Source: Candidatus Taenariivivens baikalensis (GTDB taxonomy: Bacteria; Omnitrophota; Omnitrophia; Omnitrophales; Aquincolibacteriaceae). From it: a stretch of DNA of 64,000 nucleotides. The DNA lies in the NCBI GenBank assembly GCA_009691445.1, contig SICL01000007.1, positions 6,916 to 70,915 on the forward strand, given 5' to 3'. Positions 23,276 to 57,049 of the stretch are shown here, one piece after another. Each line of letters opens with the position of its first letter. Position 1 is the stretch's first letter. The translations under genes and the position numbers were made by a program. The notes beneath the pieces are model-generated. The model saw nothing but the letters and a program-made list of their open reading frames with translations, was not told the DNA's origin and did no database searches.

Positions 23276-23338
23276 GTCATCGCGAACCCCGCAGGCCGTG
23301 GCGATCTCTCTAGATTGCTTCGCTTCACTCGCAATGAC
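23276..23338. repeat. Nested palindromic intergenic repeat, copy R1 (GTCATCGCGAA...TAGATTGCTTCGCTTCACTCGCAATGAC)
   Basis: Read directly from the sequence. The outer arms gtcatcgcgaa / ctcgcaatgac are reverse-complementary (2 mismatches). It shares the right-half box AGATTGCTTCG..CTCGCAATGAC with copies R3a and R6. Confidence 0.75.
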
Positions 23339-23351
23339 GAGAATAAGTTGA

Positions 23352-24419
23352 TTAATTGAAATCATCCGGATTTTTTTGCTGTTTATTACGAATCGCAAAC
23401 TCCATCAAAATGACAATTAAAAAAGCAATCGTAACAAATTGAACACATAACATGATCGCCTCAATTTTTAGCACATAACGCATCGCCACGGCCCCCATCC
23501 CCAACGCCAGCATCACAAAATAAGTGAAAAAGAGCGCTTGCCTTTGTGACATCCCGAGGGCCAAAAGCCGGTGGGAAAAATGATCCTTGGCGCTGAAAGT
23601 AACAATCTGGCGGATGCCTTTGGTCATTTTGTGAAACTTCCGACGGACCACCACGTACATAAGATCAAAAACCGGAAGCCCCAAGATAAAAACCGGCACC
23701 GCAATGGCTTTGAAAGGATTCGTCGACCAGGCCCCCATCACACTGATCGCGGCCAAACTATATCCCAAAAAGAAACTCCCCGCGTCTCCCATAAAAATAG
23801 AGGCTGGGGGAAAATTGTAAAAAAGAAACCCGATACAGCTTCCCATCAGGGCCACGGAAAGAGCGCCCCAGCTCCATTGTCCATTTTGAACTGCGACATA
23901 CGCATAAGCGAGTGACGCGAAAAATGTCAGGCCCGTGGCAAGCCCGTCCATATGATCGATCGCATTAAAAGCGCTGGTAACACCTACAATCCAGAACAGC
24001 GTCAAAACAAAGTTGATCCAGAAAAATCCGGGAACCAGATTTAGAAGCACCCCTTTATGCGCCAGGAAAATGGTAATACTAAAAAGGACTAACAGTTTTA
24101 AGGCGGCCGGCACCGAACGCAGATCATCCAGAATTCCAACAATCAGAGCGCAGGTTGCCCCCAAAATAAGGCCCTTTTGCTGATGTGTCAGAGATCCCGT
24201 GAGGATAAGACTGAATAAAAATCCAAAAAAAATCCCCACTCCGCCGAGACGGGGAGTGGGCTTGCTGTGAATCTTGATGTTGGAAGGGAAATCCACGGCC
24301 CCGGCCTTAATGGCAAGCCACCGGATGAACGGCGTTAGCACCGAAGTAATCACCACCGCAATAAAAAAAATCTTAACATAAAGCTCCTTCCAATGAAAAG
24401 GGTCCACTGAGGAAGTCAT
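23352..24419 (-). CDS. Polyprenol-phosphate N-acetylhexosamine-1-phosphate transferase, WecA/MraY family (GT4)
   Basis: A multi-TM protein with the family-diagnostic motif AFNAIDHMDGLATG, plus DDLRSV and a basic cytoplasmic loop VVRRKFHKMTKG. Confidence 0.75.
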   Translation of the reverse strand: MTSSVDPFHWKELYVKIFFIAVVITSVLTPFIRWLAIKAGAVDFPSNIKIHSKPTPRLGGVGIFFGFLFSLILTGSLTHQQKGLILGATCALIVGILDDLRSVPAALKLLVLFSITIFLAHKGVLLNLVPGFFWINFVLTLFWIVGVTSAFNAIDHMDGLATGLTFFASLAYAYVAVQNGQWSWGALSVALMGSCIGFLFYNFPPASIFMGDAGSFFLGYSLAAISVMGAWSTNPFKAIAVPVFILGLPVFDLMYVVVRRKFHKMTKGIRQIVTFSAKDHFSHRLLALGMSQRQALFFTYFVMLALGMGAVAMRYVLKIEAIMLCVQFVTIAFLIVILMEFAIRNKQQKNPDDFN

Positions 24420-25125
24420 AAATTCACCTTCTTCCTGCCGAGAAGGATATCGAGACTTTCTCCCCCGTAATTGAAAAGCAAATCGATAGCAGACAGGTTT
24501 GGAACAAACTCTCCGAACTGCTGGTGATAAACGGGATGATCAAATTCCTGGTAAAGAGAGCGGATCTTCCGCGCGGAAAATTTCGTTTCATCCGCGTAAT
24601 CTTTCCCGTGTTTTCCATGAAGATATTGATCCGCGCCTGTCTTCTCACACATATCCAGAATGAGTTCGTCCCCTTTGCCTGAGGCGCCGATTTCCGAAGC
24701 CTTTTTGACAGGTCGGTCAATCCCAAAAGACTTCAGCAGATAAAGAATAAAATGGCAGCTCAAATCACAAAAATTTTCCCAAGAACGTTTCATGTACATC
24801 TCTTCAAAAAAATCCGCGTATTTATAAAAATAGGGCGTCTTTCCGTAATTCACAAGAAGACTCTTCCAATGCTTACGGCCCCAGGGAAGCTCAGGATTAA
24901 TCAAAGTCTCCATAATTTTTTGCTCAAACTTGCCTTTAACCAAAACAGGCACTGAAAGCCATTGGGGACCGGTTGCGGTCTTGATGCGGTTACGACTCAC
25001 CCAACCAAACGGTCCTCGCTTCACATACTGGACATTGTCAACGATGACGAAGAGATCCGAATGATAAACCTTGTGAAAAAAACCCAAGTAGGGGAGATAG
25101 TTAGGCTGATGTCCGGTGAGGATCA
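24416..25125 (-). CDS. WbqC-like family protein (polysaccharide biosynthesis)
   Basis: The family start motif is MILTGHQPNYLPYLGFFHKV. The longer ORF-track N-terminus (MCHCVIAIAASPPRLGTRNDKPNG...) is a read-through translation of repeat R2 and is rejected. Confidence 0.65.
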
Positions 25126-25213
25126 TAGTTTTATTCGACCAAGTATCACTGTTTTGTCGGTTGAGATTGCCGCGTCGTCCTGAGGGACTCCTCGCCATGA
25201 CACCGTTTGGTTT

Positions 25214-25268
25214 GTCATTGCGAGTCCCGAGCCTTGGCGGAGACGCGGCAATCGCAATGACACAATGA
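25214..25268. repeat. Nested palindromic intergenic repeat, short copy R2 (GTCATTGCGAGTCCCGAGCCTTGGCGGAGACGCGGCAATCGCAATGAC) followed by ACAATGAC duplication
   Basis: Read directly from the sequence. It shares the GGCGGAGACGCGGCAATC box with copy R3b. Confidence 0.75.
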
Positions 25269-25295
25269 CACAATGAACCCGCCTATTTTCATATT

Positions 25296-26054
25296 TTAAA
25301 CCACTTGCCGGTAAAGCATATAGGCTTCACACGCTTTGCGTCCGACTTCGCGTCCCCTGGCACAGGCTAAATCCTCCACACTTTCGAGACTGCAAGGATC
25401 CCGTGAATCCCGTTTTTGCGAAGCATAAGCCTGTACCGCTTTGAGCTTAAGATCAAGATAAACAGAAATATCTACGTAAAAATTAGGATGAAATCCGCGG
25501 TCCGGAGTATTCCAGGTAAGCGTCGGGCTGTCATAGACAAGCACCACATCGGGACTGTGCTTCAGCCCTCCCGCATGAATGCGCAGCGCCGTAAAGCAGG
25601 CGTCAAAAACGGCACGGTGATCCTGATTGTAGGAAGGCGCAGGAATCATCACAATATCAGGTTTGATCCGGTCCAAAGAAAGGCGGCTTTTACTTTCAAG
25701 CTGTGCGATTAACTCAAACTGCGGAACAGCATCCAGCTTCATATGTTTTTTGTGATCCACATAAATCACATCGTGATCTTTCCATTTAAGAAGGGCGGCT
25801 ACTTTCTCGATTTCCTGTAAACGCTCATCCCCTTTGACGACTCCCCGTTTTTCATAAAACTTCAGATCGCTCACGGAAAAAAAGATGACATACACTTGAG
25901 CGCCAAGATCCTGGGCCTTGGCCAAAGTCCCCGCGCATCCGAACACTTCATCGTCCGGATGGGGAGACACGAGGAGAACTCGTTTTCCTTTCCAGAACTG
26001 AGTTTCGATTTCCAAAGACGGCACGGATTTACGGCGAGATTCTTTTTTCATCAT
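25296..26054 (-). CDS. PIG-L/LmbE family N-acetylglucosaminyl deacetylase
   Basis: Has the RVLLVSPHPDDEVFGCAGTL motif (HPDDE zinc site) and is ~250 aa. Confidence 0.75.
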   Translation of the reverse strand: MMKKESRRKSVPSLEIETQFWKGKRVLLVSPHPDDEVFGCAGTLAKAQDLGAQVYVIFFSVSDLKFYEKRGVVKGDERLQEIEKVAALLKWKDHDVIYVDHKKHMKLDAVPQFELIAQLESKSRLSLDRIKPDIVMIPAPSYNQDHRAVFDACFTALRIHAGGLKHSPDVVLVYDSPTLTWNTPDRGFHPNFYVDISVYLDLKLKAVQAYASQKRDSRDPCSLESVEDLACARGREVGRKACEAYMLYRQVV

Positions 26055-26058
26055 AACC

Positions 26059-27936
26059 TCAAGAATGGGGCGAGCTATTTGCCTTGATCATCGCTAAAAA
26101 CTTTTTTGCATTTTCATGCTTTGCATCAATATCCAAAGCAGTTTTCAAGGACCTCATCGCCTGCTCCATCTTACCCGTCTGCATATACAGCAAACCGATA
26201 AAGGCGTGCGTGTCCGCATCTTTCCATTGAAGATTCAAGGACGAATTAAATTCATCCAGGGCCTCGGCATATCTTTTTTGATTGAGATACGTAATCCCGA
26301 TGTTCCGATGCAGCGTTACGGCCAAATCATCGCGCGGCGCATAGCGAATCCCCTCTTTAGCCGCCTGGACCGCTTCATCATTCTTTCCCAGCCCCGCATA
26401 AGCCTGAGCAAGAAAGGCATAAAGGTACGGATCATCTTTCCTGTATCGTAAACCCTCCCGGATTTCTTTAATCGCCGCCTCATGCTTTCCAAGACGTAAA
26501 TAGACCTGAGCGAGATTAGGATGCAGCTCCGGAACCTTGGGATCCAGCTCTCTGGATTTCTCAAGCTCCCTCTCGGCATCTTCATAACGGTTCAAATTAA
26601 TAAAGGCCGCGCCCAAATTCAGGCGGATAGCTGACTCCGAGATTTCATTCATCATCGTCGATCCATCGCCATTCCCAGAAGAGGTCGCGGGCACGGGATT
26701 CATTTTTTTTCGTAAGGCCTTTTCAAGACATTCCACGGCCTTAGGATACTGTTTACTTTTAAGATAAGCGACCCCGAGATTGCTTAAGGTCGTCATATCT
26801 TCCGGATCTTTTGCCACCAGCTTTTCCAGCTCAGTCACGCCGCGATCCAAGTCATTTCTTTCGAGATAAGCGAGCGCCAAATTCCCTTGAAGAATACGGT
26901 TATCCGAATCAGCACTGAGCCCCTTCAACCAGTTAAAAATCGCAAGATCTGTATTTCCCTGCTGATAATACGCCACTCCAAGATAATTCAGGGTATCCGC
27001 CAGCATTTTCTTTTGGCTCGGAAGCACAAAATGAGCAATGGCACTGCCAAGTTCACGCACGGCAAGCGCATAACGTCCGGCTTGGTAATAAATATTTCCA
27101 AGCTCGAAATGAATATGCGGATTTTCATAGCGGTACTGCAGCGCTTCTTCCCAAATAGAAATCGCTTTTGCTTCCTGTTTGCGGGCTTGATAAAATTTTC
27201 CCAGTTGATAATAAAAATCACTGTGAGGATTTTGGCGGATTTTTTTTTCGTAAATATCAACAACCTTATCCACGCTTTCTCCAGATAAAGATTCCATCCC
27301 TTTTTGAAAATCCACACCTTGAGTGGCCGTCACAATCTGCTCATTGGCTTCATCCAGCATCAGAACTGGCTGAGCCGGAACCGACGAGTGCATGATGGCA
27401 TCCGGATCCGTGATATGGATGCCACCAAAAAGATGGGTGATCTCATGAGCCAGCACCACCTGTTCGCGCGTACTTCCCAAGGCTGCAAAAGGATCCCGGA
27501 TCACGACAAACCCGCGAAAATATTGGGCGGAGCCTACCGTATCCACGTCCGCCACTTTATCATCCCGAAAGGGCTGGCTCATTTTATGAAACCCAATCAC
27601 AATCTGATCCTTACCAAGCGGAATAAAGCTACGCAACTCTTCCATCAAAAGATCGGTCTCACGGGTTTCGTCCTGAGGTTCCCAATTAATGTATTGGACC
27701 ACTTTGAAGTGAACGTTGAAATGCGGTTCAAAAATCTGATTCACAAAGATAATGCGGTCGCGGATATCTTTTTCCCACTCGACAGCGCTCTGGAATGTCG
27801 GCGAAGAAGCAACCTTAACTTCGATTTCCCGGTGCGGAAGTTCGGAGGCAAAGACTGTATAGGGGAAAAAGAAAAGCGAAAATAACAGAAGTCTAAACGC
27901 AATTTCATAAGTAGCTGTAAATTCTTTATCGGTCAT
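26059..27936 (-). CDS. Secreted metzincin-type zinc metalloprotease domain fused to C-terminal TPR repeats
   Basis: The likely start is MTDKEFTATYEIAFRLLLFSLFFFPYTVFAS (signal peptide). It carries the metzincin signature HEITHLFGGIH (HExxHxxGxxH) with a downstream Met-turn-like AIMHSS, followed by more than 8 TPR-like repeats (YYQLGKFYQARKQEAKAISIWEEAL..., NPHIHFELGNIYYQAGRYALA...). Confidence 0.7.
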   Translation of the reverse strand: MTDKEFTATYEIAFRLLLFSLFFFPYTVFASELPHREIEVKVASSPTFQSAVEWEKDIRDRIIFVNQIFEPHFNVHFKVVQYINWEPQDETRETDLLMEELRSFIPLGKDQIVIGFHKMSQPFRDDKVADVDTVGSAQYFRGFVVIRDPFAALGSTREQVVLAHEITHLFGGIHITDPDAIMHSSVPAQPVLMLDEANEQIVTATQGVDFQKGMESLSGESVDKVVDIYEKKIRQNPHSDFYYQLGKFYQARKQEAKAISIWEEALQYRYENPHIHFELGNIYYQAGRYALAVRELGSAIAHFVLPSQKKMLADTLNYLGVAYYQQGNTDLAIFNWLKGLSADSDNRILQGNLALAYLERNDLDRGVTELEKLVAKDPEDMTTLSNLGVAYLKSKQYPKAVECLEKALRKKMNPVPATSSGNGDGSTMMNEISESAIRLNLGAAFINLNRYEDAERELEKSRELDPKVPELHPNLAQVYLRLGKHEAAIKEIREGLRYRKDDPYLYAFLAQAYAGLGKNDEAVQAAKEGIRYAPRDDLAVTLHRNIGITYLNQKRYAEALDEFNSSLNLQWKDADTHAFIGLLYMQTGKMEQAMRSLKTALDIDAKHENAKKFLAMIKANSSPHS

Positions 27937-28176
27937 TGTGAGGAGTCCCGCAGGACGACGCGGCAATCCCAGGGCACAACCCGAGATTGCTTCGCTTTGC
28001 TCGCAATGACCAACGGAAAGACATCCTGTAATAAGACGGGGGTTTTGTCATTGCGAGTCCCGCACTTGGGCGGAGACGCGGCAATCTCTGGGCGAACAAC
28101 CCGAGATTGTCCGCCACAAAATCTTCGGACGGATCCGCCGTGCTTTCTGGCGGACTTCGCTGCGGCTCGCAATGGC
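27932..28176. repeat. Composite locus with two (plus a partial third) copies of the nested palindromic repeat (R3a 27932-28010; R3b 28047-~28176)
   Basis: R3a: GTCATTGTGAGGAGTCCCGCAGGACGACGCGGCAATCCCAGGGCACAACCCGAGATTGCTTCGCTTTGCTCGCAATGAC. Its left arm contains the ATG (rc CAT 27934-36) of the metzincin-TPR gene. R3b: GTCATTGCGAGTCCCGCACTTGGGCGGAGACGCGGCAATCTCTGGGCGAACAACCCGAGATTGTCCGCC ... GCTCGCAATGGC. Confidence 0.75.
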
Positions 28177-28209
28177 GTGCGTGAGTGGAGGTTTATGATG
28201 AAACCGCTT

Positions 28210-29739
28210 CTAAGTCGTTGCAAGACCTTGAGTCCCCTGAGTTTCATTGCGAAGCAATTGCTGAAGATAACTCAGTTGATTGGGGGTGCTGTTCACGGGA
28301 AGTGTATTCAAGTGCTGGGTTAAAGCCTGCACATCCGTATAACTATACTGGCCCAGCAGTTTCAGATAGGCTGCTACCACCTTGGGATCTTCCGGCTCTC
28401 CCAGGGTTTCAGCCATTGCCCTCGCACGTTCGAAATCCGTATCACCAAATTGATCACGAAAACGGCTCCAAGTATCAAGACGCTCTGAAAGTGTGGGGAT
28501 CTCGTTGATTAGGTAGCGGTATTCCAGAATATCCGCCCCGACATAACCGCTTCCCTGCCGCAAATTAAAAGGAAAAATCTCAACCAGATTCTGGCGTCTC
28601 AATTCATCCACTGCCAGGCGGAATTGTTCCCGGGGTATCGGGAAATCCTTTTCCACATTGCGCTCAGAACCCACCCAGACCGGTGATTCCCCACTCATCT
28701 GAAGACGGTAGCGAATGACGAAATAAGCATAGATGGCACGCGCTGAAAAGTCTTTGACGTAATTTTCATGAAAGAGAGTAAGTGACACCTGAACATTAGG
28801 AGTCAGCACCACCGGCAATTTAAGCGTCAGTTCAGGATGGGACGGATCTTCCCCTTGGATCGTCAGAAGTTTATATTGATTTGAAAGCCGCCGAAGCACT
28901 TCATCCACCTGATGATCCAGAGCCATGCGATCAATGGTTCGGTCGGATGGAATACGGTGGCTCAGTTCCTCCAGAGAAACCTTAAGCGTGTTTTGATGCG
29001 CTTCATAAAACTTTTCCAGAAGAAAAAGATAAATCTTGATGGCATCCCCGTCATCACTGCTGACCATCCCTGGAAAATACTTCACATCCTGTAAAAGAAA
29101 AACCGGCACTGCGAGTTCACCCACAGTCCGGGATTCTTTTTCCACCTTAAGATCCCAGAGCGGAAAAAATTCCATACGTGTTCTCTTCTTCTGCGCCAGC
29201 GATAGGGAATAACTCAGGGATGCGGAACCCAGCCCCTCCGTCAAATTTTCATGTGACCACGCCGGGCCTCCTTCCAGGACCATCGCTTCGTCCACCACAG
29301 CCAATTGATCGGATAACCGGTATTTGGGATTCACAAAATGAATTTGCATGCCTTCTTTTTCCAGATAGGCCAGCTTGTCTTCTCGTAAAAAAAGGGATTG
29401 ATCTGAGGCTTCGTCAGTAAAGGTATTCAAAAACATCCTGACCCTGACTCCTCGTTTGACCGCACTGACAAGATCCTCCAGTAAAATATTCACCGCATCC
29501 TTTTTTTCGTCGCGGATAACGATTTGAGTCAGACTGATATCAATTTGCTTGCGGGAAAAATTAAAAAGCTCGCGCAATTTGCTCATATACTGACGGTCGC
29601 TGACATCAATCACGCCGGATCCAGAATGAATTTTTTCCGCACTTTGAGAAGAAATCGGGACAAGAATAGGCGCTGCGCTCAAGGCCGGGATTTCAAAAAT
29701 CAGGGCCAGGAGAATGCCCCCGAGACTGATTCGATTCAT
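28210..29739 (-). CDS. Hypothetical secreted protein (~509 aa), no recognised domain
   Basis: The likely start is MNRISLGGILLALIFEIPALSAAP (signal peptide) with GGAGG 6 nt upstream; the ORF-track GTG start is 7 codons earlier. Repeats R3 and R4 flank it on either side. Confidence 0.5.
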   Translation of the reverse strand: MNRISLGGILLALIFEIPALSAAPILVPISSQSAEKIHSGSGVIDVSDRQYMSKLRELFNFSRKQIDISLTQIVIRDEKKDAVNILLEDLVSAVKRGVRVRMFLNTFTDEASDQSLFLREDKLAYLEKEGMQIHFVNPKYRLSDQLAVVDEAMVLEGGPAWSHENLTEGLGSASLSYSLSLAQKKRTRMEFFPLWDLKVEKESRTVGELAVPVFLLQDVKYFPGMVSSDDGDAIKIYLFLLEKFYEAHQNTLKVSLEELSHRIPSDRTIDRMALDHQVDEVLRRLSNQYKLLTIQGEDPSHPELTLKLPVVLTPNVQVSLTLFHENYVKDFSARAIYAYFVIRYRLQMSGESPVWVGSERNVEKDFPIPREQFRLAVDELRRQNLVEIFPFNLRQGSGYVGADILEYRYLINEIPTLSERLDTWSRFRDQFGDTDFERARAMAETLGEPEDPKVVAAYLKLLGQYSYTDVQALTQHLNTLPVNSTPNQLSYLQQLLRNETQGTQGLATT

Positions 29740-29760
29740 TGTAAACCTCCGCTCACCCAC

Positions 29761-29839
29761 GTCATCGCGAGGAGGCCAAAGGTCGACGCGGCGATCCCGG
29801 TTTGAGATTGCCGCGCTCGCTTTGCTCCCTCACAATGAC
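29761..29839. repeat. Nested palindromic intergenic repeat, copy R4 (GTCATCGCGAGGAGGCCAAAGGTCGACGCGGCGATCCCGGTTTGAGATTGCCGCGCTCGCTTTGCTCCCTCACAATGAC)
   Basis: Read directly from the sequence. It lies immediately 5' of the start of gene 28210..29739 on the transcribed strand. Confidence 0.75.
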
Positions 29840-29881
29840 ACACGTCTACGTGGTTCACCGAAGCCTTTCGATTCATTTTCA

Positions 29882-30862: not shown

Positions 30863-30896
30863 ATCCCCTCAACCTTATATTAAAAAAGTTCTGCTG

Positions 30897-32382: not shown

Positions 32383-32393
32383 TATTCGGCATT

Positions 32394-32423
32394 TGCTCAA
32401 ATTTCATAAGCCTTGTATAATCC
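32394..32423 (+). promoter_or_regulatory. Candidate sigma70-type promoter (TTGCTC-N17-TATAAT) for plus-strand gene 32436..32888; near-leaderless
   Basis: ttgctcaaatttcataagccttgtataat, read directly. The perfect -10 lies 12 nt upstream of the ATG at 32436. It sits in a 36-54 bp divergent gap. Confidence 0.3.
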
Positions 32424-32435
32424 AACGTTTAGCTG

Positions 32436-32888: not shown

Positions 32889-32958
32889 TTTTTGACTGCT
32901 TTTCATCAAAAGATTTCTATGATAAAGTGAGGTTCTTCCTTGGAGGGAATTCAAAATT

Positions 32959-37863: not shown

Positions 37864-37978
37864 GATTTGAATAGGACCACGGTGATAGCAAACGCTCATT
37901 AATGTTCTATCTGAAACGGATCATAGGTGGGATGAATTATGCTTTTTTCTACCTTGAAGTCAAATGAAACTTGATCTG

Positions 37979-38048
37979 TCATTGCGAGCAAAACGAAGCA
38001 ATGTCTGCGCTTTAGATTGCCGCGGTCGCTATGCTCCCCCGCAATGAC
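37979..38048. repeat. Nested palindromic intergenic repeat, copy R5 (GTCATTGCGAGCAAAACGAAGCAATGTCTGCGCTTTAGATTGCCGCGGTCGCTATGCTCCCCCGCAATGAC)
   Basis: Read directly; it lies between the Wzc stop and the iscS start. Confidence 0.75.
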
Positions 38049-38059
38049 ACAGCTTGGCT

Positions 38060-39964
38060 TTAAGTCTGACTATAGTAGCGGGTATAAGTGTTGTAGTAAT
38101 ACTTGGAATAACCGTGATAACGCTCTTTATCCATATCCACCATATTCAGAGTCACCCCGATAATCTGAACTCCCGACTTTGTCAGCTGAGCCTGGGTATG
38201 GCGGATCAAATCAAGCGGAGTCCTTCCTGCCGCAATCACTAAAATAATATGCCCGATCAAACTACCGAGCACAAACCCATCTCCGATACCCGTCAGGGGC
38301 GGGCAATCCACAATCACCCGGTCAAAACGTTCCGCAGCCAGTTTAAGGAATTCCTTCATGCGCTCTGATCCCAGAATCGCCGCTGGATTAGGAGAAGTAG
38401 GTCCGCTTGTCACCAGCGTAAGATCTTCAATGCTTGATTGTTTGAGGATGGAGTCAAAATCAAGTTTGCTTGTTAGAAAATTCGAAAGCCCCGAAGTGTT
38501 ATCCAGTTTAAAAATTTTATGCAAGGTAGGGCGGCGCATATCGGCATCAATAAGCAAGGTTCGGTTCCCATCTAACGCCAGAGAAACAGCAATATTGTCC
38601 GCGGTAAACGACTTACCTTCGTGAGGAAGACAACTCGTCAACACCAAGGTCTTCAAAGATTCGGGTGAAGCAGAAAAATTAATGGAAACACGCAAATAGC
38701 GAAAACTTTCGGCAATTTCTGATTTCGCATCATGAAAGGCCATAATCCCTTTTTTGCCGTCTAACAAGGCCCGATCCTTAATCATGGGAAGCGGGCCGAG
38801 GAAAGGAAGGCTAAGTCCCTTGCGTTCCAAATCCTCCATCGAATGAATCGAATCATCAAAGTAATCAATCAGGAAAATGAGAAAACAACTGGCTAAAATC
38901 TCAATAATGGCCGCTACAAGAATCGTCTTATTACGGGAATTGGGCAGAGGTGATTTCGGGATCTCTGCCTCTTCCAGGATCCGGGCAACATTGACATTCA
39001 ACCGGCCTTCTGCCCGCGCTTTCAAACCATCCACAATGCGCTGTTTCTCGCCTTTAATGCTGTCTTCCAGGAATTTAATACTGGCACGCTCTTTGATGAT
39101 CTTAGGATGCTTCTCACGATACTGTCCCAAAAGCAGCTTGAGATCGGCCGATTCGCTGGATTTTTTTTCTAAAAGTTTACGAATCGTATCATCCGTGCGG
39201 ACCGAGGGAAGACTGTCAATCAACTCTTCCCGCGTCATTTGCTTCATGCCGCCCATAGGATCTTTGATCGTCACGGTTTCCTTAGGATCGCCGCCCTGGG
39301 GAAGCCAATTCAAAATTTCTCGGGAATAATACAACATATCTTCGAAATTTTTGCGGATATAGGCTCTGCTCACTGCGTTGGCAATATTCGCTGCTAACTC
39401 AGCATCTGCAGCCGACGCCTCAATACTTAAAATGCGACTTTCTTCAATCCGGATCACATTCACCATCCCTCGGAGATTATGAACCGCGGCATCAACATCC
39501 TTCTTTTCAAAGTAAGTTTCCAGTCTCAATTCCTGGACCACTTGTTTTAAAACCGAAGAGCCCTTAATAATCGCCATTTGCGTCGCATAATAGTCCGCTC
39601 CAAAAGCAGCGCTGAGCGACTCATTTCTGCCGTCCGATTTGCTAAACGCATCCTGAGCATTCGTCGGAGGGCGCTCAACAATCACTTGAGCCACCGCCTG
39701 ATATCGCACCGGCATCTTGGAGGTATAAATAAAGGCGAAGGTAAGAGCAATAATCAGAAAAGTAAAGATGACATAAAAATTCTTCGTGATGAGAAAGAAG
39801 TAATATTTATAATCAATGGGTTTTTCTACTTCTTCCCCATAGCCACCGGGATAATAAGGCGCACTATTCGGCTGAGGCATCAACGGCGTCTGCTGCATTC
39901 TAGGTTCTTGCATATCCATCCTCCTTTCCGCCAACCAGCGTTGGACGAATCCGTCCTCTGGCAA
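38060..39964 (-). CDS. Polysaccharide co-polymerase / tyrosine autokinase (Wzc/EpsG-type BY-kinase)
   Basis: An N-terminal Wzz-like region with a TM (YYFFLITKNFYVIFTFLIIALTFAFIY), a second TM (ILVAAIIEILASCFLIFLIDYF), Walker A LTSCLPHEGKSF, Walker A' LLIDADMRRP and a C-terminal Tyr cluster HGYSKYYYNTYTRYYSQT. Confidence 0.8.
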   Translation of the reverse strand: MPEDGFVQRWLAERRMDMQEPRMQQTPLMPQPNSAPYYPGGYGEEVEKPIDYKYYFFLITKNFYVIFTFLIIALTFAFIYTSKMPVRYQAVAQVIVERPPTNAQDAFSKSDGRNESLSAAFGADYYATQMAIIKGSSVLKQVVQELRLETYFEKKDVDAAVHNLRGMVNVIRIEESRILSIEASAADAELAANIANAVSRAYIRKNFEDMLYYSREILNWLPQGGDPKETVTIKDPMGGMKQMTREELIDSLPSVRTDDTIRKLLEKKSSESADLKLLLGQYREKHPKIIKERASIKFLEDSIKGEKQRIVDGLKARAEGRLNVNVARILEEAEIPKSPLPNSRNKTILVAAIIEILASCFLIFLIDYFDDSIHSMEDLERKGLSLPFLGPLPMIKDRALLDGKKGIMAFHDAKSEIAESFRYLRVSINFSASPESLKTLVLTSCLPHEGKSFTADNIAVSLALDGNRTLLIDADMRRPTLHKIFKLDNTSGLSNFLTSKLDFDSILKQSSIEDLTLVTSGPTSPNPAAILGSERMKEFLKLAAERFDRVIVDCPPLTGIGDGFVLGSLIGHIILVIAAGRTPLDLIRHTQAQLTKSGVQIIGVTLNMVDMDKERYHGYSKYYYNTYTRYYSQT

Positions 39965-45813: not shown

Positions 45814-45815
45814 GT

Positions 45816-46562: not shown

Positions 46563-46575
46563 CGGTTTAAAAAAA

Positions 46576-48777: not shown

Positions 48778-48788
48778 GGCAAGCTTCC

Positions 48789-50296: not shown

Positions 50297-50751
50297 GCCT
50301 TAAGCTGTAAAGTCACTTCGATTTCAACCGCCGCGTTCATAGGAAGACTGGCAACCCCTACGGATGAGCGAGCGTGGATTCCCTGATCCTGAAAAAGTAA
50401 CACCAGTAGATCCGAAGCGCCGTTCACGACTTGAGGGATTTCATAAAACGAAGGATCCGCATTCACATACCCCACGACTCTCAGGATCCGGTCCAACTTA
50501 TCAAAACCAATTGCACTGCGGATCAGACTGATCACATTAAGCGCCGCAAGCCGGGCTGCTTCCTGCCCTTGCTCCAGCGTCAGATCCTTTCCGATACGTC
50601 CCTGAATAAACCGCGCCGTTCCATATTTGGAAACTTGCCCGCTCAAGTAGGCCGTCGTTCCCTGAATCACAACCGGCGTGTATGAACCTACGGACTTGGG
50701 CGCTTCAGGAAGTTCGATCTTGAGTTCTTTAAGACGTGTTTCGTAATTCAT
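50293..50751 (-). CDS. RidA/YjgF-family protein
   Basis: C-terminal signature ARSSVGVASLPMNAAVEIEVTLQL and overall Rid fold length from the MNYETRLKEL start. Confidence 0.6.
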   Translation of the reverse strand: MNYETRLKELKIELPEAPKSVGSYTPVVIQGTTAYLSGQVSKYGTARFIQGRIGKDLTLEQGQEAARLAALNVISLIRSAIGFDKLDRILRVVGYVNADPSFYEIPQVVNGASDLLVLLFQDQGIHARSSVGVASLPMNAAVEIEVTLQLKA

Positions 50752-50809
50752 AATTCCAGAAACTGGGGACAAGTGGCTGCAACCTGTCCCCAGTTTAGTT
50801 ATACGGTCT

Positions 50810-51511
50810 TCATTTATAAGCGACAATCAACGTGGCAAGTCCAAACGTGAACCGGTAAATTTTCGCATCCCGAAAACCTTCTTGTTTCAACAAAGCGACC
50901 GTTTTTTCAGGCTCCTGAAAAGTCAGGATTGATTCGGAAAGAAAATGATACGCATCCTGATGCCCCGAAAGCGCACCACCCATAAGCGGGAGGAAAAATT
51001 TTAAATAGGGATAGGCCAGGATTCTCCAGATTGGATGGACGGGACGGGTCAGACAAAGCAAAGCCGCTTTCCCTCCAGGATTGAGCAAGCGGTGAATCTC
51101 GCGGGCGAAACCAGGAAGATCCTGAACGCTTCGAAGCGTATAACTTGAAATGACCAGATCAAAGCTCTGAGCTTGAAGCGGAATATCATGAAAGTCGGCA
51201 CTCACAAGCAGTACCTTAGAAGAAAGTTCTTTGCGCGCCTCAAAAAGCATGTTCAGGGAAAAATCAAGACCCACCAGGCGATCCCATGATTTCCGGATGG
51301 AAAAAAGCTGGATAAATTTTCCCGTACCAATTCCCAAATCAAGGATCGAACGCTCTTGACCTGAGAAAACAAGTTTCACTGCCCGCTTACGCCACCGATC
51401 ATCCAGATTCCAGCTGAGCACCTGATTAATCCGGTCATAACGGGAGGCAATCGAATCAAAAAAAGACCGGATCGTTTCCTTTTTCTCAGAAAGCGTATTA
51501 GCTGTGGACAT
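50810..51511 (-). CDS. ubiE: Demethylmenaquinone/ubiquinone C-methyltransferase
   Basis: FDSIASRYDRINQVLSWNLDDRWRKRAV (UbiE N-terminal signature); SAM motif ILDLGIGTGKF; FDLVISSYTLRSVQDL. Confidence 0.75.
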   Translation of the reverse strand: MSTANTLSEKKETIRSFFDSIASRYDRINQVLSWNLDDRWRKRAVKLVFSGQERSILDLGIGTGKFIQLFSIRKSWDRLVGLDFSLNMLFEARKELSSKVLLVSADFHDIPLQAQSFDLVISSYTLRSVQDLPGFAREIHRLLNPGGKAALLCLTRPVHPIWRILAYPYLKFFLPLMGGALSGHQDAYHFLSESILTFQEPEKTVALLKQEGFRDAKIYRFTFGLATLIVAYK

Positions 51512-52577
51512 GAAGAATCTCATAATTAGTATCGCGCTGAGCCGGCGTGTATCCGGCCTCACGGATCAGACGGATGAGATCTTCACGGCGCGTGTGAACC
51601 TGTATACCAGTCGGTTCAAGCACTTTATCCTCAAGCAATGTCCCACCCATATCATCGGCGCCGAAGGCAAGAGCAATCTGGCCCAGCTTTAGTCCTTCGG
51701 TCAACCAACCGCTTTGGATGTGCTCAAAGTTATCCAACATCAAACGAGAGACCGCAACTGTCTTCAGATAATCTTCGCCGCCCGCGGGACGAAGATGCTG
51801 CATGCGCGGTGTATTTTTGGGTGACATCGTCCAGGGAATAAAAGCGCGGAACCCGTGAGTTTCATCCTGAAGATCGCGAACAGTCAAAAGATGTTTAATG
51901 CGCTCCTCGATCGTCTCCACATGCCCCACCACCATCGTGGCGGTTGATTTGAGCCCTGCCTGATGGGCTGTGCGCATCACTTCAATCCAGCGTTTGGAGG
52001 TCGCTTTCTTGGGACTGATAATCTTGCGGACACGTTCGACCAGAATCTCTGCGCCGCCGCCAGGAAGCGAATTGAGTCCCGCTTCTTTAAAAATCCGGAA
52101 GGTTTCAGGTAAAGAAAGACGGTTCTTTCGGGAAATCATTTCAAATTCCACAACAGAAAAAGAATGCACATGCACTTGGGGAAATTTTTCACGGATGGCA
52201 CGAATCAAATTCAGATAATAATCCAGCGGAAGATCGGTATTCACACCGCCCTGGATCAGGGCCTGGGTCCCGCCAAGATCCACGAGCTCCTGGATTTTCT
52301 GAAAAATCGTTTGATAAGAAAGCGTATAGCCTTCCTTGTGTCCGGGACTGCGGTAAAAAGCACAAAAGTCACAGTCCACCACACAGACATTGGTGTAACT
52401 GATATTGCGGTCAACAATGAACGTCACGACCCCGTGCGGATTCGCACGCCGGACTAGTTCATGGGCAGCCATCCCGAGACGCAGAAGATCGCAGGAATAA
52501 AGTAGGACCCCGTCTTCCTGAGAGAGGCGCTCTCCATCCAAACGTTTTTGAAGAACTTTATCGTAGATATCGGGCAC
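51498..52577 (-). CDS. Radical-SAM menaquinone (futalosine pathway) enzyme, MqnE/MqnC family
   Basis: The CVVDCDFCAFYRS CxxxCxFCAF cluster is typical of the MqnC/MqnE/CofH radical-SAM group. It sits in a context of MqnA-like and UbiE genes. Confidence 0.7.
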   Translation of the reverse strand: MPDIYDKVLQKRLDGERLSQEDGVLLYSCDLLRLGMAAHELVRRANPHGVVTFIVDRNISYTNVCVVDCDFCAFYRSPGHKEGYTLSYQTIFQKIQELVDLGGTQALIQGGVNTDLPLDYYLNLIRAIREKFPQVHVHSFSVVEFEMISRKNRLSLPETFRIFKEAGLNSLPGGGAEILVERVRKIISPKKATSKRWIEVMRTAHQAGLKSTATMVVGHVETIEERIKHLLTVRDLQDETHGFRAFIPWTMSPKNTPRMQHLRPAGGEDYLKTVAVSRLMLDNFEHIQSGWLTEGLKLGQIALAFGADDMGGTLLEDKVLEPTGIQVHTRREDLIRLIREAGYTPAQRDTNYEILHVHS

Positions 52578-52632
52578 TGAGACGGTCCTTGCGTGGATGT
52601 TTAAATTCTGAAATTTCGCTCGAAGAAGTCTA

Positions 52633-53583
52633 TCATTCCATCTTGAAAAATTCCAGCCTTTTCAGGCGCGGAGACAGGCCGTAGCGGTGCGCGAGACGGA
52701 AGAAAAGCTCAAGGCCTTCCTGCATCGGTTTATCCAAAGAAAAAATAAGATTAAAAAGATATCCGAAAAGTTTCCCAAATTTTTCATCCATAAAATGAAG
52801 CCCTTCTGCGTCCTTAAGAAGCTGCTCCAAATTTTCAAGATTGCTGTCACGCGTCGCCTGAATTCGAGAACACAGCCAGCGAACCTCCTCCGGATACCGC
52901 TTAGCAAAATCTTTGCTCACGGCCCAGACCGAGAAACAAAAAGGTTTTCCCGTCCAATTCCACCAGAGATCGCTCAGATCATAGCGATAGACAAATTCCT
53001 TGGGCTGATAAAAAAGCGCGTCATCACCAATCACCAAGGCCGCTTTACAACGTTCCAGCATCGCTTCCGGGTCCGAATCCATGGTCAGAAAGGAGTTTTT
53101 GAATTTATATTTAAAGCGCAGAAGAATTTTAAGCAGGGCTGATGAACTCAAACTCTCGGAAGAAAGGGCAATCGTTTCCTGATCCAGACCTTCAATGCGG
53201 TCACGTGAAAATAAAATGACACTGCCAGAAAAATCCAGCGAACCGATCGCCATATCCGGGAGAAGAAGGAACTGATCCTGATGATTCAGATAAGCCAGTG
53301 ACGAAATCGGAGCTATATCAATCTCGCCATGGTAAAGCGCTTCGTTCAAAGCCGCCGGCGCATCTTCGCTAAAATCAAGAAAGACCGATCGTTTGGACGA
53401 TTCGCAAAAACAGGGTTGCGAAGGATCCGAAGGACGAAGATTGTGAAAAAAGGGAGTAACATTCGAGTAGCGGATACGCCCAATGCGGATTCTTAAAGCA
53501 TCCTGCGTGGCAAAAGAAACAGGTCCAGAACCCGGCAGATTTTTTTCCTCTCCTGGTATCTTGGGTCCTGATTTATTCACCAT
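52633..53583 (-). CDS. MqnA/MqnD-family menaquinone biosynthesis protein (chorismate dehydratase-like)
   Basis: From the likely start MVNKSGPK...: LRIRIGRIRYSNVTPFFHNL ... ALNEALYHGEIDIAPISSLAY matches the VitK2_biosynth-type pattern (rlG.i.ylN..P ... GelD.a.iss.ey). Confidence 0.6.
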   Translation of the reverse strand: MVNKSGPKIPGEEKNLPGSGPVSFATQDALRIRIGRIRYSNVTPFFHNLRPSDPSQPCFCESSKRSVFLDFSEDAPAALNEALYHGEIDIAPISSLAYLNHQDQFLLLPDMAIGSLDFSGSVILFSRDRIEGLDQETIALSSESLSSSALLKILLRFKYKFKNSFLTMDSDPEAMLERCKAALVIGDDALFYQPKEFVYRYDLSDLWWNWTGKPFCFSVWAVSKDFAKRYPEEVRWLCSRIQATRDSNLENLEQLLKDAEGLHFMDEKFGKLFGYLFNLIFSLDKPMQEGLELFFRLAHRYGLSPRLKRLEFFKME

Positions 53584-54208
53584 GCGCGAGTGTTCCTTCT
53601 GTTTTGTGAATCGGCCCAGTCCAGCGAGGATAAAGCGTGTGAGAAATATCAAGCTGATCCAAAACTTTTCCCACCATAAAATCAACCAGGTCTTGGACGC
53701 TCTGGATCCCGGAATAGAATCCCGGCATCGCAGGAACAACACGAACTCCAAGCCGCGCAAGCTTCAGCATATTCTCCAGATGAATGGCACTGAGCGGTGT
53801 TTCGCGGGGAACCAGGACGAGCCTCCGACCTTCTTTAATCACGCAATCTGCCGCGCGATGAATCAGATTTTGGCTCATCCCCGCCGCAAGCGCACCCAAA
53901 GTCCCCATACTGCAGGGAATGATCACCATCCCGCGCGTAGGGTAGGATCCGCTGGCGATGGGAGCGGAAAAATCTTTTGCGGAGTAAGCCGTCAAAAGCC
54001 CTCGCGACTTTTCTCCAAACACGGGGATGAGATCTTCTTCCCGCGTATAACTTTTCAAAGAAATTCCCAATTCTTCCTTAAAGACAAGGCGGGCGGCTTC
54101 GGAAATCACAAGCGCAATGGAGATTCCAGATTCCGTGAGCATCTGTACCATACGCACGGCATAAAGAACGCCGCTTGCTCCGGTGATCCCCACAATTAAA
54201 GGCATCAT
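53573..54208 (-). CDS. ubiX: Flavin prenyltransferase UbiX/Pad1 family (MqnL-like in futalosine context)
   Basis: MMPLIVGITGASGVLYAVRMVQML; RLVLVPRETPL; ~210 aa. Confidence 0.85.
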   Translation of the reverse strand: MMPLIVGITGASGVLYAVRMVQMLTESGISIALVISEAARLVFKEELGISLKSYTREEDLIPVFGEKSRGLLTAYSAKDFSAPIASGSYPTRGMVIIPCSMGTLGALAAGMSQNLIHRAADCVIKEGRRLVLVPRETPLSAIHLENMLKLARLGVRVVPAMPGFYSGIQSVQDLVDFMVGKVLDQLDISHTLYPRWTGPIHKTEGTLAHGE

Positions 54209-55104
54209 GCGGTGATGCTCCTGATCCCAATCTCCAAAAGAACGGCGGCCAACATAGAACAGCTGATCACGGCATTCATCCAGAAAAAAGCTTCATCCAT
54301 TTTTTCAAGGCCGTGCAATTCGATTAAAAAATGCTCCCGGATAAGAAAAATAGCCGCGCAGGCAATCCCCAAAAAATAAACGACGCCCAGATTCCCCGAC
54401 CATCCGGCAAACATCCACATCCAGATCGTCAGAAAATGAAGCGCGCGCGTCGTGATCAGGCTGGCCTTGGGGCCAAACTTCGCGGGAAAGGATTGGAGTT
54501 TACTGCAGCGGTCAAATTTTTCATCCTGAAGCGCATAAATAATGTCAAAGCCTGCCACCCAAAAAATCACGCCGAGTGAAATGAAACCCGGGACCCAGGA
54601 AAAAACTGCCCGGCTGGCTAACCAAGCGCCATAAGGCGCGATTCCAAGCACCATCCCCAAAATCCAGTGAGACATCCAGGTAAATCGTTTAGTAAAAGGA
54701 TAAAGAAGTGCCAGAAAAAAAGGAATGGGCGAAAGTTTGAAGCAAAGAGGATTGATCTTGTAGGTCACTAATTCAAAAAGAACAAAGGAAGCTACAGTCC
54801 AGGTAATAACATAAGAACGCCTGAGTTTACCCGCAGGAAGTGCGCGGTTTTTGGTCCGGGGATTTCGAGCATCAATCGAATGATCAATCAAGCGGTTCAG
54901 CCCCATCGCCATCGTACGAAAACTCACCATTGCGATGGTAATCAAGAAAAATAAACGCAGGCTAGGAAATCCTTTTTCAGCAAGAAGCAGACCGGTATAG
55001 GCAAAAGGAAGGGCGAAAATCGAGTGTTCAAATTTGATCATTTGAAGGAACAACACGATCTTGGATCTGGACTGATCTTGCGCTGCTGTTCTTTGGGCTA
55101 TCAA
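54205..55104 (-). CDS. UbiA-family aromatic prenyltransferase (MqnP-like by context)
   Basis: Polytopic; NRLIDHSIDARNPRTKNRALPAG (first Asp-rich motif region) and a second YALQDEKFD motif. Confidence 0.75.
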   Translation of the reverse strand: MIAQRTAAQDQSRSKIVLFLQMIKFEHSIFALPFAYTGLLLAEKGFPSLRLFFLITIAMVSFRTMAMGLNRLIDHSIDARNPRTKNRALPAGKLRRSYVITWTVASFVLFELVTYKINPLCFKLSPIPFFLALLYPFTKRFTWMSHWILGMVLGIAPYGAWLASRAVFSWVPGFISLGVIFWVAGFDIIYALQDEKFDRCSKLQSFPAKFGPKASLITTRALHFLTIWMWMFAGWSGNLGVVYFLGIACAAIFLIREHFLIELHGLEKMDEAFFWMNAVISCSMLAAVLLEIGIRSITA

Positions 55105-55221
55105 AATATCCCTCCACGAGACAAGAAACGCTACTCTAACTTATCCCAAGAATTCGAGCGGCCAGTATAAGCTAACCCGCTTTGAGATTCAAGAAACCCT
55201 TAGGAGGGACTTAGAAAACTC

Positions 55222-56145
55222 TTACGGCTCTCCATCGCTGGTTTCCAGATGCTGCATAAGGATCTGCATATCTTCGTGCATTGGTGCTTCAAAGCGGAAA
55301 CGCTCCCCCGTCGAAGGATGATTCACCGTGAGTGACAATGCATGCAAAGCCTGGCGGTTGATCCAAGGAGAAGAAGCACCATAAAGGATATCTCCTATTA
55401 CGGGATGGTCCATATGCGCCATATGAACCCGGATCTGATGAGTTCTTCCGGTTTTGGGAGAGACTTCCACCCAGGTTGAATTTCGAAAGCGCTTTTTAAC
55501 ATGGAAAAAAGTTGTCGCCTCTTTTCCGCCAGCGGGTTTAATCACCACTTTCTTACGGTTAAGGAATGCCCGGCCCACAGGCTCTTCGCAGACACCCTCT
55601 TCATGCTGAACCACGCCGCGGACAAAGGCATGATAGACTTTTTCCACCGTATGTTCCTTAAATTGCCGGGCAAGCACGGCGTGTGCGTGGTCATTTTTGG
55701 CAACGACCATCACGCCGGAGGTGTCTTTATCTAGCCGGTGCACAAGCCCTGGCCGCGTGGTTTCCGCTGCCGATAACTTTTTAAAATGAAAAAGGAGTGC
55801 ATTGACCAACGTATGATCCGGATTCCCATAAGCCGGATGAACCACCATTCCAGCGGGCTTATCCACGATCACCATTTCTTCATCTTCATAAAGAATGGGA
55901 ACAGGAATATCCTCAGCCCGAACTCCTTGAGCTGCTTCTTGGGCCACCTCCACTTCAATTTCATCTCCCTCTTTGAGCCGGGAATGAGCGGAAATCTGCT
56001 CACGTCCCTTGATGCGGATGGAACCGTTTCCGATCCCCTTCTGAATTTTCGAGCGTGAGAAGCGCTCAACAAGTTCCTTAGAAAGAAAAATGTCAATACG
56101 CATTCCGTGCGCATCCTCGTTAACCGAAATAATTTCAAGATCCAT
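55222..56145 (-). CDS. rluD: 23S rRNA pseudouridine synthase, RluA/RluD family
   Basis: S4-like N-terminus; catalytic HRLDKDTSGVMVVAKN; ~307 aa. Confidence 0.85.
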   Translation of the reverse strand: MDLEIISVNEDAHGMRIDIFLSKELVERFSRSKIQKGIGNGSIRIKGREQISAHSRLKEGDEIEVEVAQEAAQGVRAEDIPVPILYEDEEMVIVDKPAGMVVHPAYGNPDHTLVNALLFHFKKLSAAETTRPGLVHRLDKDTSGVMVVAKNDHAHAVLARQFKEHTVEKVYHAFVRGVVQHEEGVCEEPVGRAFLNRKKVVIKPAGGKEATTFFHVKKRFRNSTWVEVSPKTGRTHQIRVHMAHMDHPVIGDILYGASSPWINRQALHALSLTVNHPSTGERFRFEAPMHEDMQILMQHLETSDGEP

Positions 56146-56154
56146 AATTTAAAA

Positions 56155-56245
56155 AGAAGGAAGAGAGAAGAAAGAAGATGGAAGAAAAATCTTCACTCTT
56201 CACTCTTCACTCTTTCCTCTTCCCTCTCCCCTCTCTTTTACGATT
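56155..56245. repeat. Homopurine / homopyrimidine mirror tract (aagagagaagaaagaagatggaagaaaaatcttcactcttcactcttcactctttcctcttccctctcccctctc)
   Basis: Read directly; it fills the rluD-lgt intergenic gap, and the two halves are roughly reverse-complementary. Confidence 0.6.
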
Positions 56246-56952
56246 AGCATGGCTCCTCCGGCAATCACACCGAGACTGATCCACTGATTCCAGGTTAAAA
56301 AAAACCACATCGGATTTCCATCCCTGAAAAACTCAATCGCCAGTCGCCCCAAACCATACAGGATCAGGTACAAGCCAAAGATTTGCCCGGGAAAATTCCG
56401 GCGTGGATAAAAAGCAGATAAGAAAATAAAAAGCAAAAAGGTGTAGAGCGATTCATAAATCTGCGCAGGGTGAACATGCTCAGGGCCTCCGGGAAAACTC
56501 ACCGCCCAGGGAAATGAGCAATAGGCTCCAAAACAACATCCGTTCAGGAAGCAACCGATACGACCAAAGGTTTGGGTCAATGCCACGTAAGGAATCATAA
56601 AATCAAACCCTGCAAGCGGTGGGATTTTTTTTGCCCGGAAAAAAAAGAGCAGCCCCAAGGTTGAGCTGATAAGCCCGCCATAAAAGACGAGCCCGCCTTC
56701 CCACACGGCAAAGGCATTCCAGGGATGAACTCTGTACCACGCACCGTTTTGAATCACATAATAAAGCCGTGCGCCGACAAGGCCTGAGATCACGCAAAAA
56801 AACACCATATCGTAAAGCGTATTCTTATTACAAAACTTATCGCGCTCAATCTGCTTTTTCATCCAAAACAGGGAAAGCATCACACCCAGCACCATCATCA
56901 GGCCGTAAGAATATAAATGGAAAGGACCCAAAGACAGGAGAATAGATTTCAT
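56200..56952 (-). CDS. lgt: Prolipoprotein diacylglyceryl transferase
   Basis: YGLMMVLGVMLSLFW; signature GRIGCFLNGCCFG; ~250 aa. Confidence 0.9.
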   Translation of the reverse strand: MKSILLSLGPFHLYSYGLMMVLGVMLSLFWMKKQIERDKFCNKNTLYDMVFFCVISGLVGARLYYVIQNGAWYRVHPWNAFAVWEGGLVFYGGLISSTLGLLFFFRAKKIPPLAGFDFMIPYVALTQTFGRIGCFLNGCCFGAYCSFPWAVSFPGGPEHVHPAQIYESLYTFLLFIFLSAFYPRRNFPGQIFGLYLILYGLGRLAIEFFRDGNPMWFFLTWNQWISLGVIAGGAMLIVKERGEGRGKSEE

Positions 56953-56978
56953 AATAATTCCACGTTGTTTTTTAACTT

Positions 56979-57049
56979 GCCATTGCGAGCCAGAGGCGAA
57001 GAAATCTCAATGCCTAGATTGCTTCGTCGCTTTGCTCCTCGCAATGACC
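56979..57049. repeat. Nested palindromic intergenic repeat, copy R6 (GCCATTGCGAGCCAGAGGCGAAGAAATCTCAATGCCTAGATTGCTTCGTCGCTTTGCTCCTCGCAATGAC)
   Basis: Read directly; it lies between the lspA stop and the lgt start. Confidence 0.75.

Follow-up and report, generated by a model that had tools for sequence, protein, structure and literature searches.

A 64,000-nucleotide (nt) stretch of contig SICL01000007.1 from Candidatus Taenariivivens baikalensis (Omnitrophota), positions 6,916 to 70,915 of the forward strand and hereafter called the window, contains a family of short palindromic repeats that an earlier reading of the sequence, the original prediction, described as nested palindromes of 65 to 80 bp at six intergenic loci. 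We found that the real repeat is a half-element of ~25 to 45 nt, which is also found singly and in tandem arrays elsewhere, and that the 65- to 80-bp nested palindrome is an inverted pair of such units. The elements are probably members of the CGTC-tagged superfamily of repetitive extragenic palindromes (REPs), that is, a non-autonomous repeat at the DNA level; the earlier suggestion of a REP-like element fits their head, stem start, tail, pairing, placement, and in-frame intragenic copies. The units form a dispersed, dynamic, polymorphic, and strand-indifferent DNA repeat whose number and position vary between related genomes, and they insert without target-site duplication and tolerate in-frame insertion into genes. 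Below, we call them the ATTGCGAG family, after the segment that follows the tag.

The repeat unit and its pairs

The window contains 16 GTCATTGCGAG/CTCGCAATGAC boxes with at most one mismatch, compared to 0.99 expected, and none of 100 shuffles reached 16. The number of loci is eight rather than six when the 27932 and 28047 copies (copies are named by their position in the window) are counted as one. All six loci of the original prediction are real, with their boxes present where they had been placed, but the family also includes a solo unit at 25162 and a pair at 1498.

The anatomy of the unit was derived from alignments of 431 to 537 units taken from the window and from the loci that we fetched from other genomes and phages. 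On one strand, a unit reads as a YGTC tag, ATTGCGAG, a variable GC-rich segment, G(AA/CG/TG)GCAAT, and a tail. The base preceding the invariant GTC (position -1) is C in 58% and T in 36% of 537 units, or 65% and 29%, respectively, across 205 pairs; window copies have C, T, or G there. The boxes are invariant, and of the tails in 431 units, 200 are CCA, 110 CTC, and 40 CCC. This sequence is laid out as an unpaired 5' YGTC tag, a basal stem ATTGC...GCAAT, a purine-rich internal loop (GAG/GAA, GCG, or GTG), and an apical stem-loop. In 176 units the variable segment reads CGNAGC; in the rest it is GAGCGNAGCGAC or one of many differing self-complementary GC-rich stems, many of them closed by a C-GNA-G triloop; the apical variants CCGAAGG and GCGNNAGC occur too. 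Of 431 units, 212 have the motif GCGNAGC on the tagged strand, and none has it on the complementary strand.

The basal stem is paired in 98.8% of cases and is invariant in a gap-free alignment of 32 distinct units, in which both partners have changed in four of the five apical pairs. For the single unit, the covariation score is 0.186, compared to 0.059 in shuffles (0 of 500 reached 0.186) and at most 0.114 in controls with slid partners. Thus, with an invariant basal helix and compensatory apical changes, the single unit behaves as a hairpin. Most units sit in inverted pairs with their tags outward; the partners are separated by a spacer of 5 to 28 nt and are usually unlike each other, and by length, 117 of 175 pairs are heterodimers. 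Across the two halves of a pair, the variable inner-box positions combine almost at random (43 hetero-typic and 10 homo-typic pairs among the minor types), so the two-level hairpin put forward in the original prediction is not the conserved feature. The compensatory changes envisaged for its two stems exist within the single-unit hairpin but not across the halves, and the long hairpin formed by the two halves seems to be a side effect of inverted duplication.

Spread, placement, and mobility of the units

We searched viral contigs and species-representative genomes with an exact pattern for the tags-outward pair, which matched 43 viral contigs and at least 120 stretches of the representative genomes. 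Among the matches listed are Alphaproteobacteria (Sphingomonas, Novosphingobium, and Bradyrhizobium), other Proteobacteria, Chloroflexota, Cyanobacteria, Bacteroidota, Nitrospirota, candidate-phyla-radiation lineages, Elusimicrobiota, and Planctomycetota. Plasmid pSA1 of Novosphingobium resinovorum has the element at at least 40 places, and the region inspected there carries no annotation. Half-units occur alone and in head-to-tail arrays as well, and adjacent boxes, in loci gathered with the LR pattern, are arranged as LR in 209 cases, RL in 34, RR in 31, and LL in 16. By our count, LR pairs are also the commonest arrangement in relatives of the window organism that were chosen without the pattern. 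Arrays of five to seven units, with a spacing of 24 to 46 nt inside each run, are present in Anaerolineae (L085, 1841-2058), Flavihumibacter (L136, 1744-2861), and Mucilaginibacter (L125, 7046-7303), where the adjoining open reading frames (ORFs) have no informative Pfam match.

The number and position of units differ among closely related sequences. In a phage portal gene, a 75-nt pair is present in frame in two contigs (L029 and L040) and absent from three related ones, with filled and empty sites that are too diverged to give exact insertion borders. Three near-identical phage contigs differ at one locus in the number and arrangement of units. A set of related IMG/VR phage contigs with portal, capsid, and adaptor genes (L016, L029, L033, L037, L040, and L044) carries units at very high density, including as many as 27 outer boxes within 13.7 kb and many solo right-hand boxes and partial tandem copies.

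We also compared the window with relatives of its organism that were fetched through LpxD (62 to 70% identity). The element is patchy among them, with 0.04 boxes per kb compared to 0.25 in the window, and many of the 21-kb loci have none. By this comparison, the 37978 copy is a lineage-specific insertion behind the stop codon of a Wzz-like gene, because the site is empty in five relatives (L176, L184, L198, L190, and L202) that all keep the promoter-like TTGAC...CATAAT that lies a short way downstream of the copy in the window. The gaps upstream of the TPR-metzincin and PLD-like genes are, by contrast, occupied in the syntenic relative L198 as they are in the window, with flanking proteins that are ~49% identical. 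A look-up of exact proteins returned only the identical strain L001 and therefore yielded no insertion polymorphism.

The copies in intergenic gaps are distributed as 56 co-directional, 27 convergent, and 11 divergent, against baseline gaps of 350, 99, and 97, respectively (chi-square ~8.1, p ~0.02, with genes called as longest ORFs), so that they are commoner in convergent and rarer in divergent gaps than the baseline. Their median distance is 26.5 nt from the upstream stop codon and 73 nt to the next start. When the borders of 205 pairs were examined for direct repeats of 3 to 8 nt, these were present in 0 to 2 pairs, with expectations of 0 to 4, and one 3-nt setting gave 5 compared to 4.0. 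The target-site duplications that had been considered for the flanks of the copies are thus not seen clearly above the permuted expectation in any setting.

We infer that the units would spread as non-autonomous elements through a single-stranded DNA (ssDNA) hairpin, which would be recognized in trans by an enzyme encoded away from them. The system of GTAG-tagged REPs and their REP-associated tyrosine transposase (RAYT) is a precedent for mobilization in trans; we know of no enzyme for CGTC REPs. We examined the neighbors of the element at 164 loci, in slices of 8 to 14 kb that total ~1.4 Mb. All-against-all clustering of 5685 ORFs from 165 sequences gave no recurrent neighbor beyond ABC ATPases and syntenic phage genes, and a screen of the loci for an HUH motif plus tyrosine found one unlinked IS200-like gene, lying 3.7 kb away from one of the copies in L063. 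Pfam detected no nuclease or transposase among the ORFs that unit arrays flank or on phage contig L044, which is rich in copies.

Several points weigh against a mobile repeat of the CGTC-tagged kind. We found no mobilizing enzyme, and it is the polymorphism that suggests mobility. The two positions shared with L198 could be explained by retained function as well as by insertion hot spots. The arrangement counts are biased by the tags-outward pattern with which viral and genome loci were gathered, and the context statistics are built on crude gene calls. Folded as DNA with standard energy parameters, the short unit seen most often is no more stable than shuffled sequence (-2.7 kcal/mol, z = +0.5), and for this reason its hairpin would depend on non-canonical G·A pairs and on the stability of its mini-hairpin; for DNA mini-hairpins of the GCGNAGC type, the stability greatly exceeds both that of the RNA equivalents and the value expected from standard rules (PMC13037366). 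The stem also differs from the published one. As described in the text of the survey that defined families CGTC-1 to CGTC-4 (Di Nocera, De Gregorio, Rocco, BMC Genomics 2013, PMC3733652), CGTC stems have 8 to 9 perfect bp and a 4- to 5-nt loop, and bulged members may have escaped the authors' search; only 5 bp (ATTGC/GCAAT) are Watson-Crick pairs here, although the segment lengths of 8, 5 to 6, and 8 to 9 nt do fit the layout given there. Peptide signatures of the ATTGCGAG family are not found in that paper's table of intragenic copies. Because of the shorter perfect stem and the absence of these peptides from the table, we file the family at the superfamily level.

Copies and genes in the window

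Pfam scans in the window covered 29 ORFs, including the genes that flank copies. The six originally listed copies each lie between co-directional minus-strand genes and start 13 to 45 nt past the upstream stop codon, and the flanking pairs are AAA_22 ATPase/glycosyltransferase 4 (GT4), WbqC/PIG-L, TPR-metzincin/PLD-like, PLD-like/hypothetical, cysteine desulfurase/Wzz-like, and lgt/lspA. The original prediction that copies occupy intergenic, co-directional minus-strand gaps therefore describes these six loci, but not every copy is intergenic, because the 1498-1562 pair sits in frame within an ORF of >5415 amino acids (aa). The window has seven tags-outward pairs. Its units mostly have GCAAAGC or longer GC stems in place of the canonical GCGNAGC, and several are decayed; the window copies are old and partly decayed.

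The 23276 copy (23275-23339) is an inverted heterodimer that follows the stop of the GT4 gene and precedes the start of the AAA_22 gene, with a canonical right unit, GTCATTGCGAG-TGAAGC-GAAGCAAT on the minus strand, and a degenerate left unit. The solo unit at 25162-25202, with its tagged strand minus, reads GTCATGGCGAG-GAGTCCCTCAGGACGAC-GCGGCAAT-CTC and is inverted, being 90% complementary to 27932-27971; it was absent from the original list. In the PIG-L/WbqC gap, the 25214 copy (25213-25275) consists of a full plus-strand unit followed by a truncated partner, ATCGCAATGAC. It ends in three tandem copies of ACAATGAC (25254-25275), which extend the truncated outer box and look like the result of slippage. 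The 27932 copy (27931-28011) is an inverted heterodimer of a long unit, with the apical hairpin GTCC-CGCA-GGAC, and a short CAAAGC unit. The 28047 copy (28046-28177) is an inverted pair whose minus-strand unit is split within GAAG^CAAT by a 47-nt palindromic insertion containing GGACGGATCCGCCG. The 29761 copy (29760-29840) is an inverted pair in the gap between a hypothetical 326-aa gene and the PLD-like gene, and the 56979 copy (56978-57049) is one between lspA (signal peptidase II) and lgt. The 37978 copy (37977-38049) is an inverted pair between the stop codon of the Wzz-like gene and the promoter-like TTGACT/CATAAT of the cysteine-desulfurase operon; the latter reads TTGACT-N16-CATAAT at 37936-37963 (minus strand), upstream of the cysteine-desulfurase gene.

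The orientation of the copies had been described as always the same. This is poorly defined because the element is a quasi-palindrome. When judged by unit type (a GCGG-type or a GAAG-type inner box), it applies to the 23276, 25214, 27932, and 28047 copies, but the 37978 copy is reversed and the 29761, 56979, and 1498 copies are unassignable.

Several copies contribute sequence to neighboring ORFs. The sole in-frame ATG of the TPR-metzincin ORF is the outer-box ATG of the 27932 copy (27934-27936, minus strand), as predicted for a copy overlapping this start codon, and in L198 the outer-box ATG is likewise the only in-frame start of this ORF; the start codon of the gene is co-opted from one repeat copy. 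The predicted abutment of a copy on gene 28210..29739 is also found, as the 29761-29839 element ends 21 nt before the ATG at 29739, and spurious N-terminal extensions of ORFs, such as VIAIAASPPRLGTRNDK, are indeed translated element sequence. The last ~16 codons of the PLD-like gene (28210-28258, ...QLLRNETQGTQGLATT*) resemble a degenerate fused unit (AATTGCTTCGCAATGAA), and its orthologue in L198 has a different C-terminal end.

The degenerate inverted pair at 1498-1562, which the original list did not include, and an adjoining palindrome together insert 114 nt in frame into one of the 94-aa repeats of a giant minus-strand ORF. Its stop-free frame reads ...GGRGSEAIGAIYPEIASLLARNE..., and the host repeat is 38 aa longer than the neighboring repeats. 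The giant ORF is stop-free over window positions 1-16245, runs past the window edge, and is made up of dozens of ~94-aa (279- to 294-nt) Ig-like repeats with a weak Kre9_KNH-like match.

The window also has three matches (0.25 expected) to a second small palindrome, GGACGGATCCGTCC: 1570-1583, beside the 1498 copy; 28127-28140, within the 47-nt insert of the 28047 copy; and 39943-39956, in the first codons of the mechanically called Wzz ORF, where there is a 35-nt match with 1564-1598. Units can be broken by other short elements. In the window, the 47-nt palindrome lies exactly inside GAAG^CAAT at 28088-28165, and in the relative L177 a similar AT-rich insert breaks units at three loci (8590-8738, 11283, and 12295), with a length of ~100 nt at 8590-8738, the one locus with both flanks seen. 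These inserts suggest a nested repeat that targets the units.

Alternative explanations and known systems

A broader reading, which we regard as doubtful, takes the ATTGCGAG family as a single pan-bacterial, phage-borne ssDNA hairpin element, the fold of which is read by a widespread enzyme that is never encoded adjacent to it. The fold may combine tandem G·A pairs with the GCGNAGC-type mini-hairpin, and the reader may be an unrecognized HUH-type nuclease or a primase-like host protein. If true, the element would have a propagation and cross-phylum route distinct from that of RAYT/GTAG-REP, and it would explain how CGTC REPs can move with no transposase of their own, which the 2013 survey left as an open question.

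It is improbable that the elements are instead a cis-acting structured RNA, at inter-cistronic, 5' untranslated region (UTR), or 3'-end positions, that governs mRNA stability, processing, and translation start of polysaccharide and envelope genes. In the window, every intergenic copy is transcribed as part of a co-directional array and lies close behind a stop codon, seven of eight have strong folds (z = -3 to -6), and the two positions common to the window and L198, with the outer-box start codon in both, could be taken as signs of such a role; REPs in other bacteria have been reported as RNA elements (cited in the text of PMC3733652). However, sense and antisense RNAs of the window copies fold equally well, the strand that folds better is split 30 to 41 among 73 co-directional-gap pairs elsewhere (p = 0.22), and solo units have no orientation bias (12 compared to 10). 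The element also lies in phage structural genes, coding regions, and convergent gaps, and beside unrelated genes in many phyla, and the pairing of the two halves is uncompensated. At the 37978 site, which is empty in the five relatives, the copy is upstream of the conserved promoter of the downstream transcript and not within it. No Rfam 15 family matched the whole window at gathering scores, and 27850-28250 gave only chance-level matches at permissive E-values (E = 6 to 9). On these grounds, a conserved structured 5'-UTR or inter-cistronic RNA, as proposed in the original prediction, is not supported as the primary role, and a dedicated regulatory RNA is disfavored. Because copies are transcribed inside operon-like arrays, incidental effects on mRNA are possible: as RNA, the window hairpins have folding energies of -24 to -60 kcal/mol, and by acting as 3'-end barriers or attenuators, a role proposed for REPs in general, they may make the 3' ends of upstream mRNA more stable or reduce read-through. 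Any such effects would be secondary, and no data here require them. Rho-independent terminators were dropped as an identity, as no T-run follows the hairpins in window copies.

A classical system of REPs or REP doublets forming hairpins (REPINs), moved by a RAYT (an IS200-like Y1 HUH enzyme) that is encoded elsewhere and flanked by units, is likewise an unlikely source of the repeat. Its architecture is analogous (a hairpin with a four-nucleotide 5' tag, arranged in inverted pairs that lack target duplications), RAYT homologues are widespread, and the IS200-like gene of L063 could be counted in its favor. That gene is unlinked, though, and is the sole Y1 transposase in the 164 loci, with none adjoining any copy. 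The three distant RAYT loci that we inspected, in Chloroflexota and in cyanobacterial plasmids (Gloeocapsa and Kovacikia), have their own GTAG-tagged REPs at their flanks rather than this element, a tblastn search with E. coli RayT against the copy-rich Novosphingobium replicons gave no match, and no RAYT gene flanked by the repeat is present among the scanned window ORFs or in the fetched loci. The text of the 2013 survey similarly reports no tyrosine-transposase gene flanked by CGTC units (PMC3733652).

We consider it highly improbable that the element is a miniature inverted-repeat transposable element (MITE), an internally deleted insertion sequence with a DDE transposase that reads the outer arms as terminal inverted repeats, as had also been proposed. 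The length of 60 to 80 bp, the perfect 11-bp terminal inverted repeats, and the dispersed copies are MITE-like. Against this stand the 205 pairs without target-site duplication, the half-units that occur alone and in head-to-tail arrays, the absence from ~1.4 Mb of loci of a longer element with the same ends and of a recurrent transposase, and the conserved internal boxes and compensated hairpin, which are unexpected in MITE interiors. Terminal repeats of an insertion sequence and CRISPR repeats were both dropped as identities.

The least probable alternative, with hardly any chance of being right, is that the copies are recombination or cassette-junction sites, attC-like or targets of a site-specific recombinase, that mark exchangeable blocks of a polysaccharide cluster. 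Five gaps in 22 to 31 kb are occupied, and a GT4-WbqC-PIG-L three-gene block (23352-26054), which lies between the AAA_22 and TPR-metzincin genes, has the 23276 copy on one border and the 25162-25275 copies inside, and is absent from L198 (1615-1714). Related units of the CGTC-1 type (Neisseria dRS3) are reported to serve as targets for prophage integration. However, the PIG-L/TPR-metzincin border of the extra block has no element, copies also lie inside genes and phage structural modules, and no integrase or recombinase is present among the 29 Pfam-scanned ORFs. Integron core sites have the consensus RYYYAAC/GTTRRRY, and the boxes GTCATTGCGAG and GAAGCAAT are unlike these when judged by eye, with no motif scan; integron attC sites were also dropped as an identity.

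The finding is thus real and largely ordinary: the elements belong to a known kind, the CGTC-tagged REPs, and are small palindromic DNA repeats that look selfish, and the window finding alone is modest because it adds only decayed copies. For annotation, the elements explain spurious N-terminal extensions and small ORFs, the repeat origin of one start codon, and the extra 38 aa in a giant surface protein. That a REP-type unit with near-invariant boxes is found in phages as well as in Omnitrophota, candidate-phyla-radiation lineages, Chloroflexota, Cyanobacteria, Bacteroidota, and Proteobacteria, with no linked transposase, sharpens the open problem of how CGTC-type REPs originate and spread, and the strand-specific GCGNAGC mini-hairpin offers a testable handle, namely, recognition as ssDNA and not as RNA. 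The significance would rise only if the pan-bacterial spread and this mini-hairpin led to the missing mobilizing enzyme.

Among known systems, the d(GCGNAGC)/d(GCGNNAGC) mini-hairpins of Hirao and co-workers, which sit at single-strand replication or transcription start signals (PMC13037366), share the commonest apical motif exactly; the likeness is one of motif only, and the link to priming or origins belongs to the published systems. With Rickettsia palindromic elements (RPEs), the family shares a palindrome that lies in frame within protein genes and leaves the ORF unbroken (1498-1562 in the window and the portal gene of L029 and L040), but most copies here are intergenic and the sequence family is another. 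GTAG REPs, bacterial interspersed mosaic elements (BIMEs), and REPINs of E. coli and Pseudomonas are likewise tagged hairpins at gene 3' ends, with inverted doublets that form long hairpins and no target duplication; they differ in having GTAG or GTGG in place of the YGTC tag, in sequence, and in their enzyme, no cognate of which was found here.

The closest likeness is to the CGTC REPs, for which the text of the 2013 survey describes a CGTC or TGTC head, AT-starting stems, a CCA tail, heterodimers, a location mainly in co-directional or convergent gaps near the upstream 3' end, and some in-frame intragenic copies (PMC3733652). The ATTGCGAG family has the same unpaired CGTC/TGTC tag, AT stem start, and CCA-type tail in a unit of ~27 to 35 nt, the same outward-tagged inverted pairs with frequent heterodimers and no linked transposase, and the same gaps and in-frame copies. 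It differs from that description in the conserved purine-rich internal loop and variable apical mini-hairpin that follow the basal stem. Compared with the text and table of the 2013 paper, the family has probably not been described individually before; full-text matches to the box sequences were unrelated primers only, and the later literature that we found on CGTC REPs consists only of citations of that paper. According to the survey (PMC3733652), Neisseria dRS3 and Rickettsia RPE-6 belong to CGTC-1 and RPE-4 is CGTC-4. The family shares YGTCATT...AATCCA with CGTC-1, and canonical CGTC-1 units (TGTCATTCCCGCGAAGGCGGGAATCCA) co-occur with it in L116, L082, and L177. The survey text reports CGTC REPs from five phyla (PMC3733652), and the phylum range of the ATTGCGAG family is much wider.

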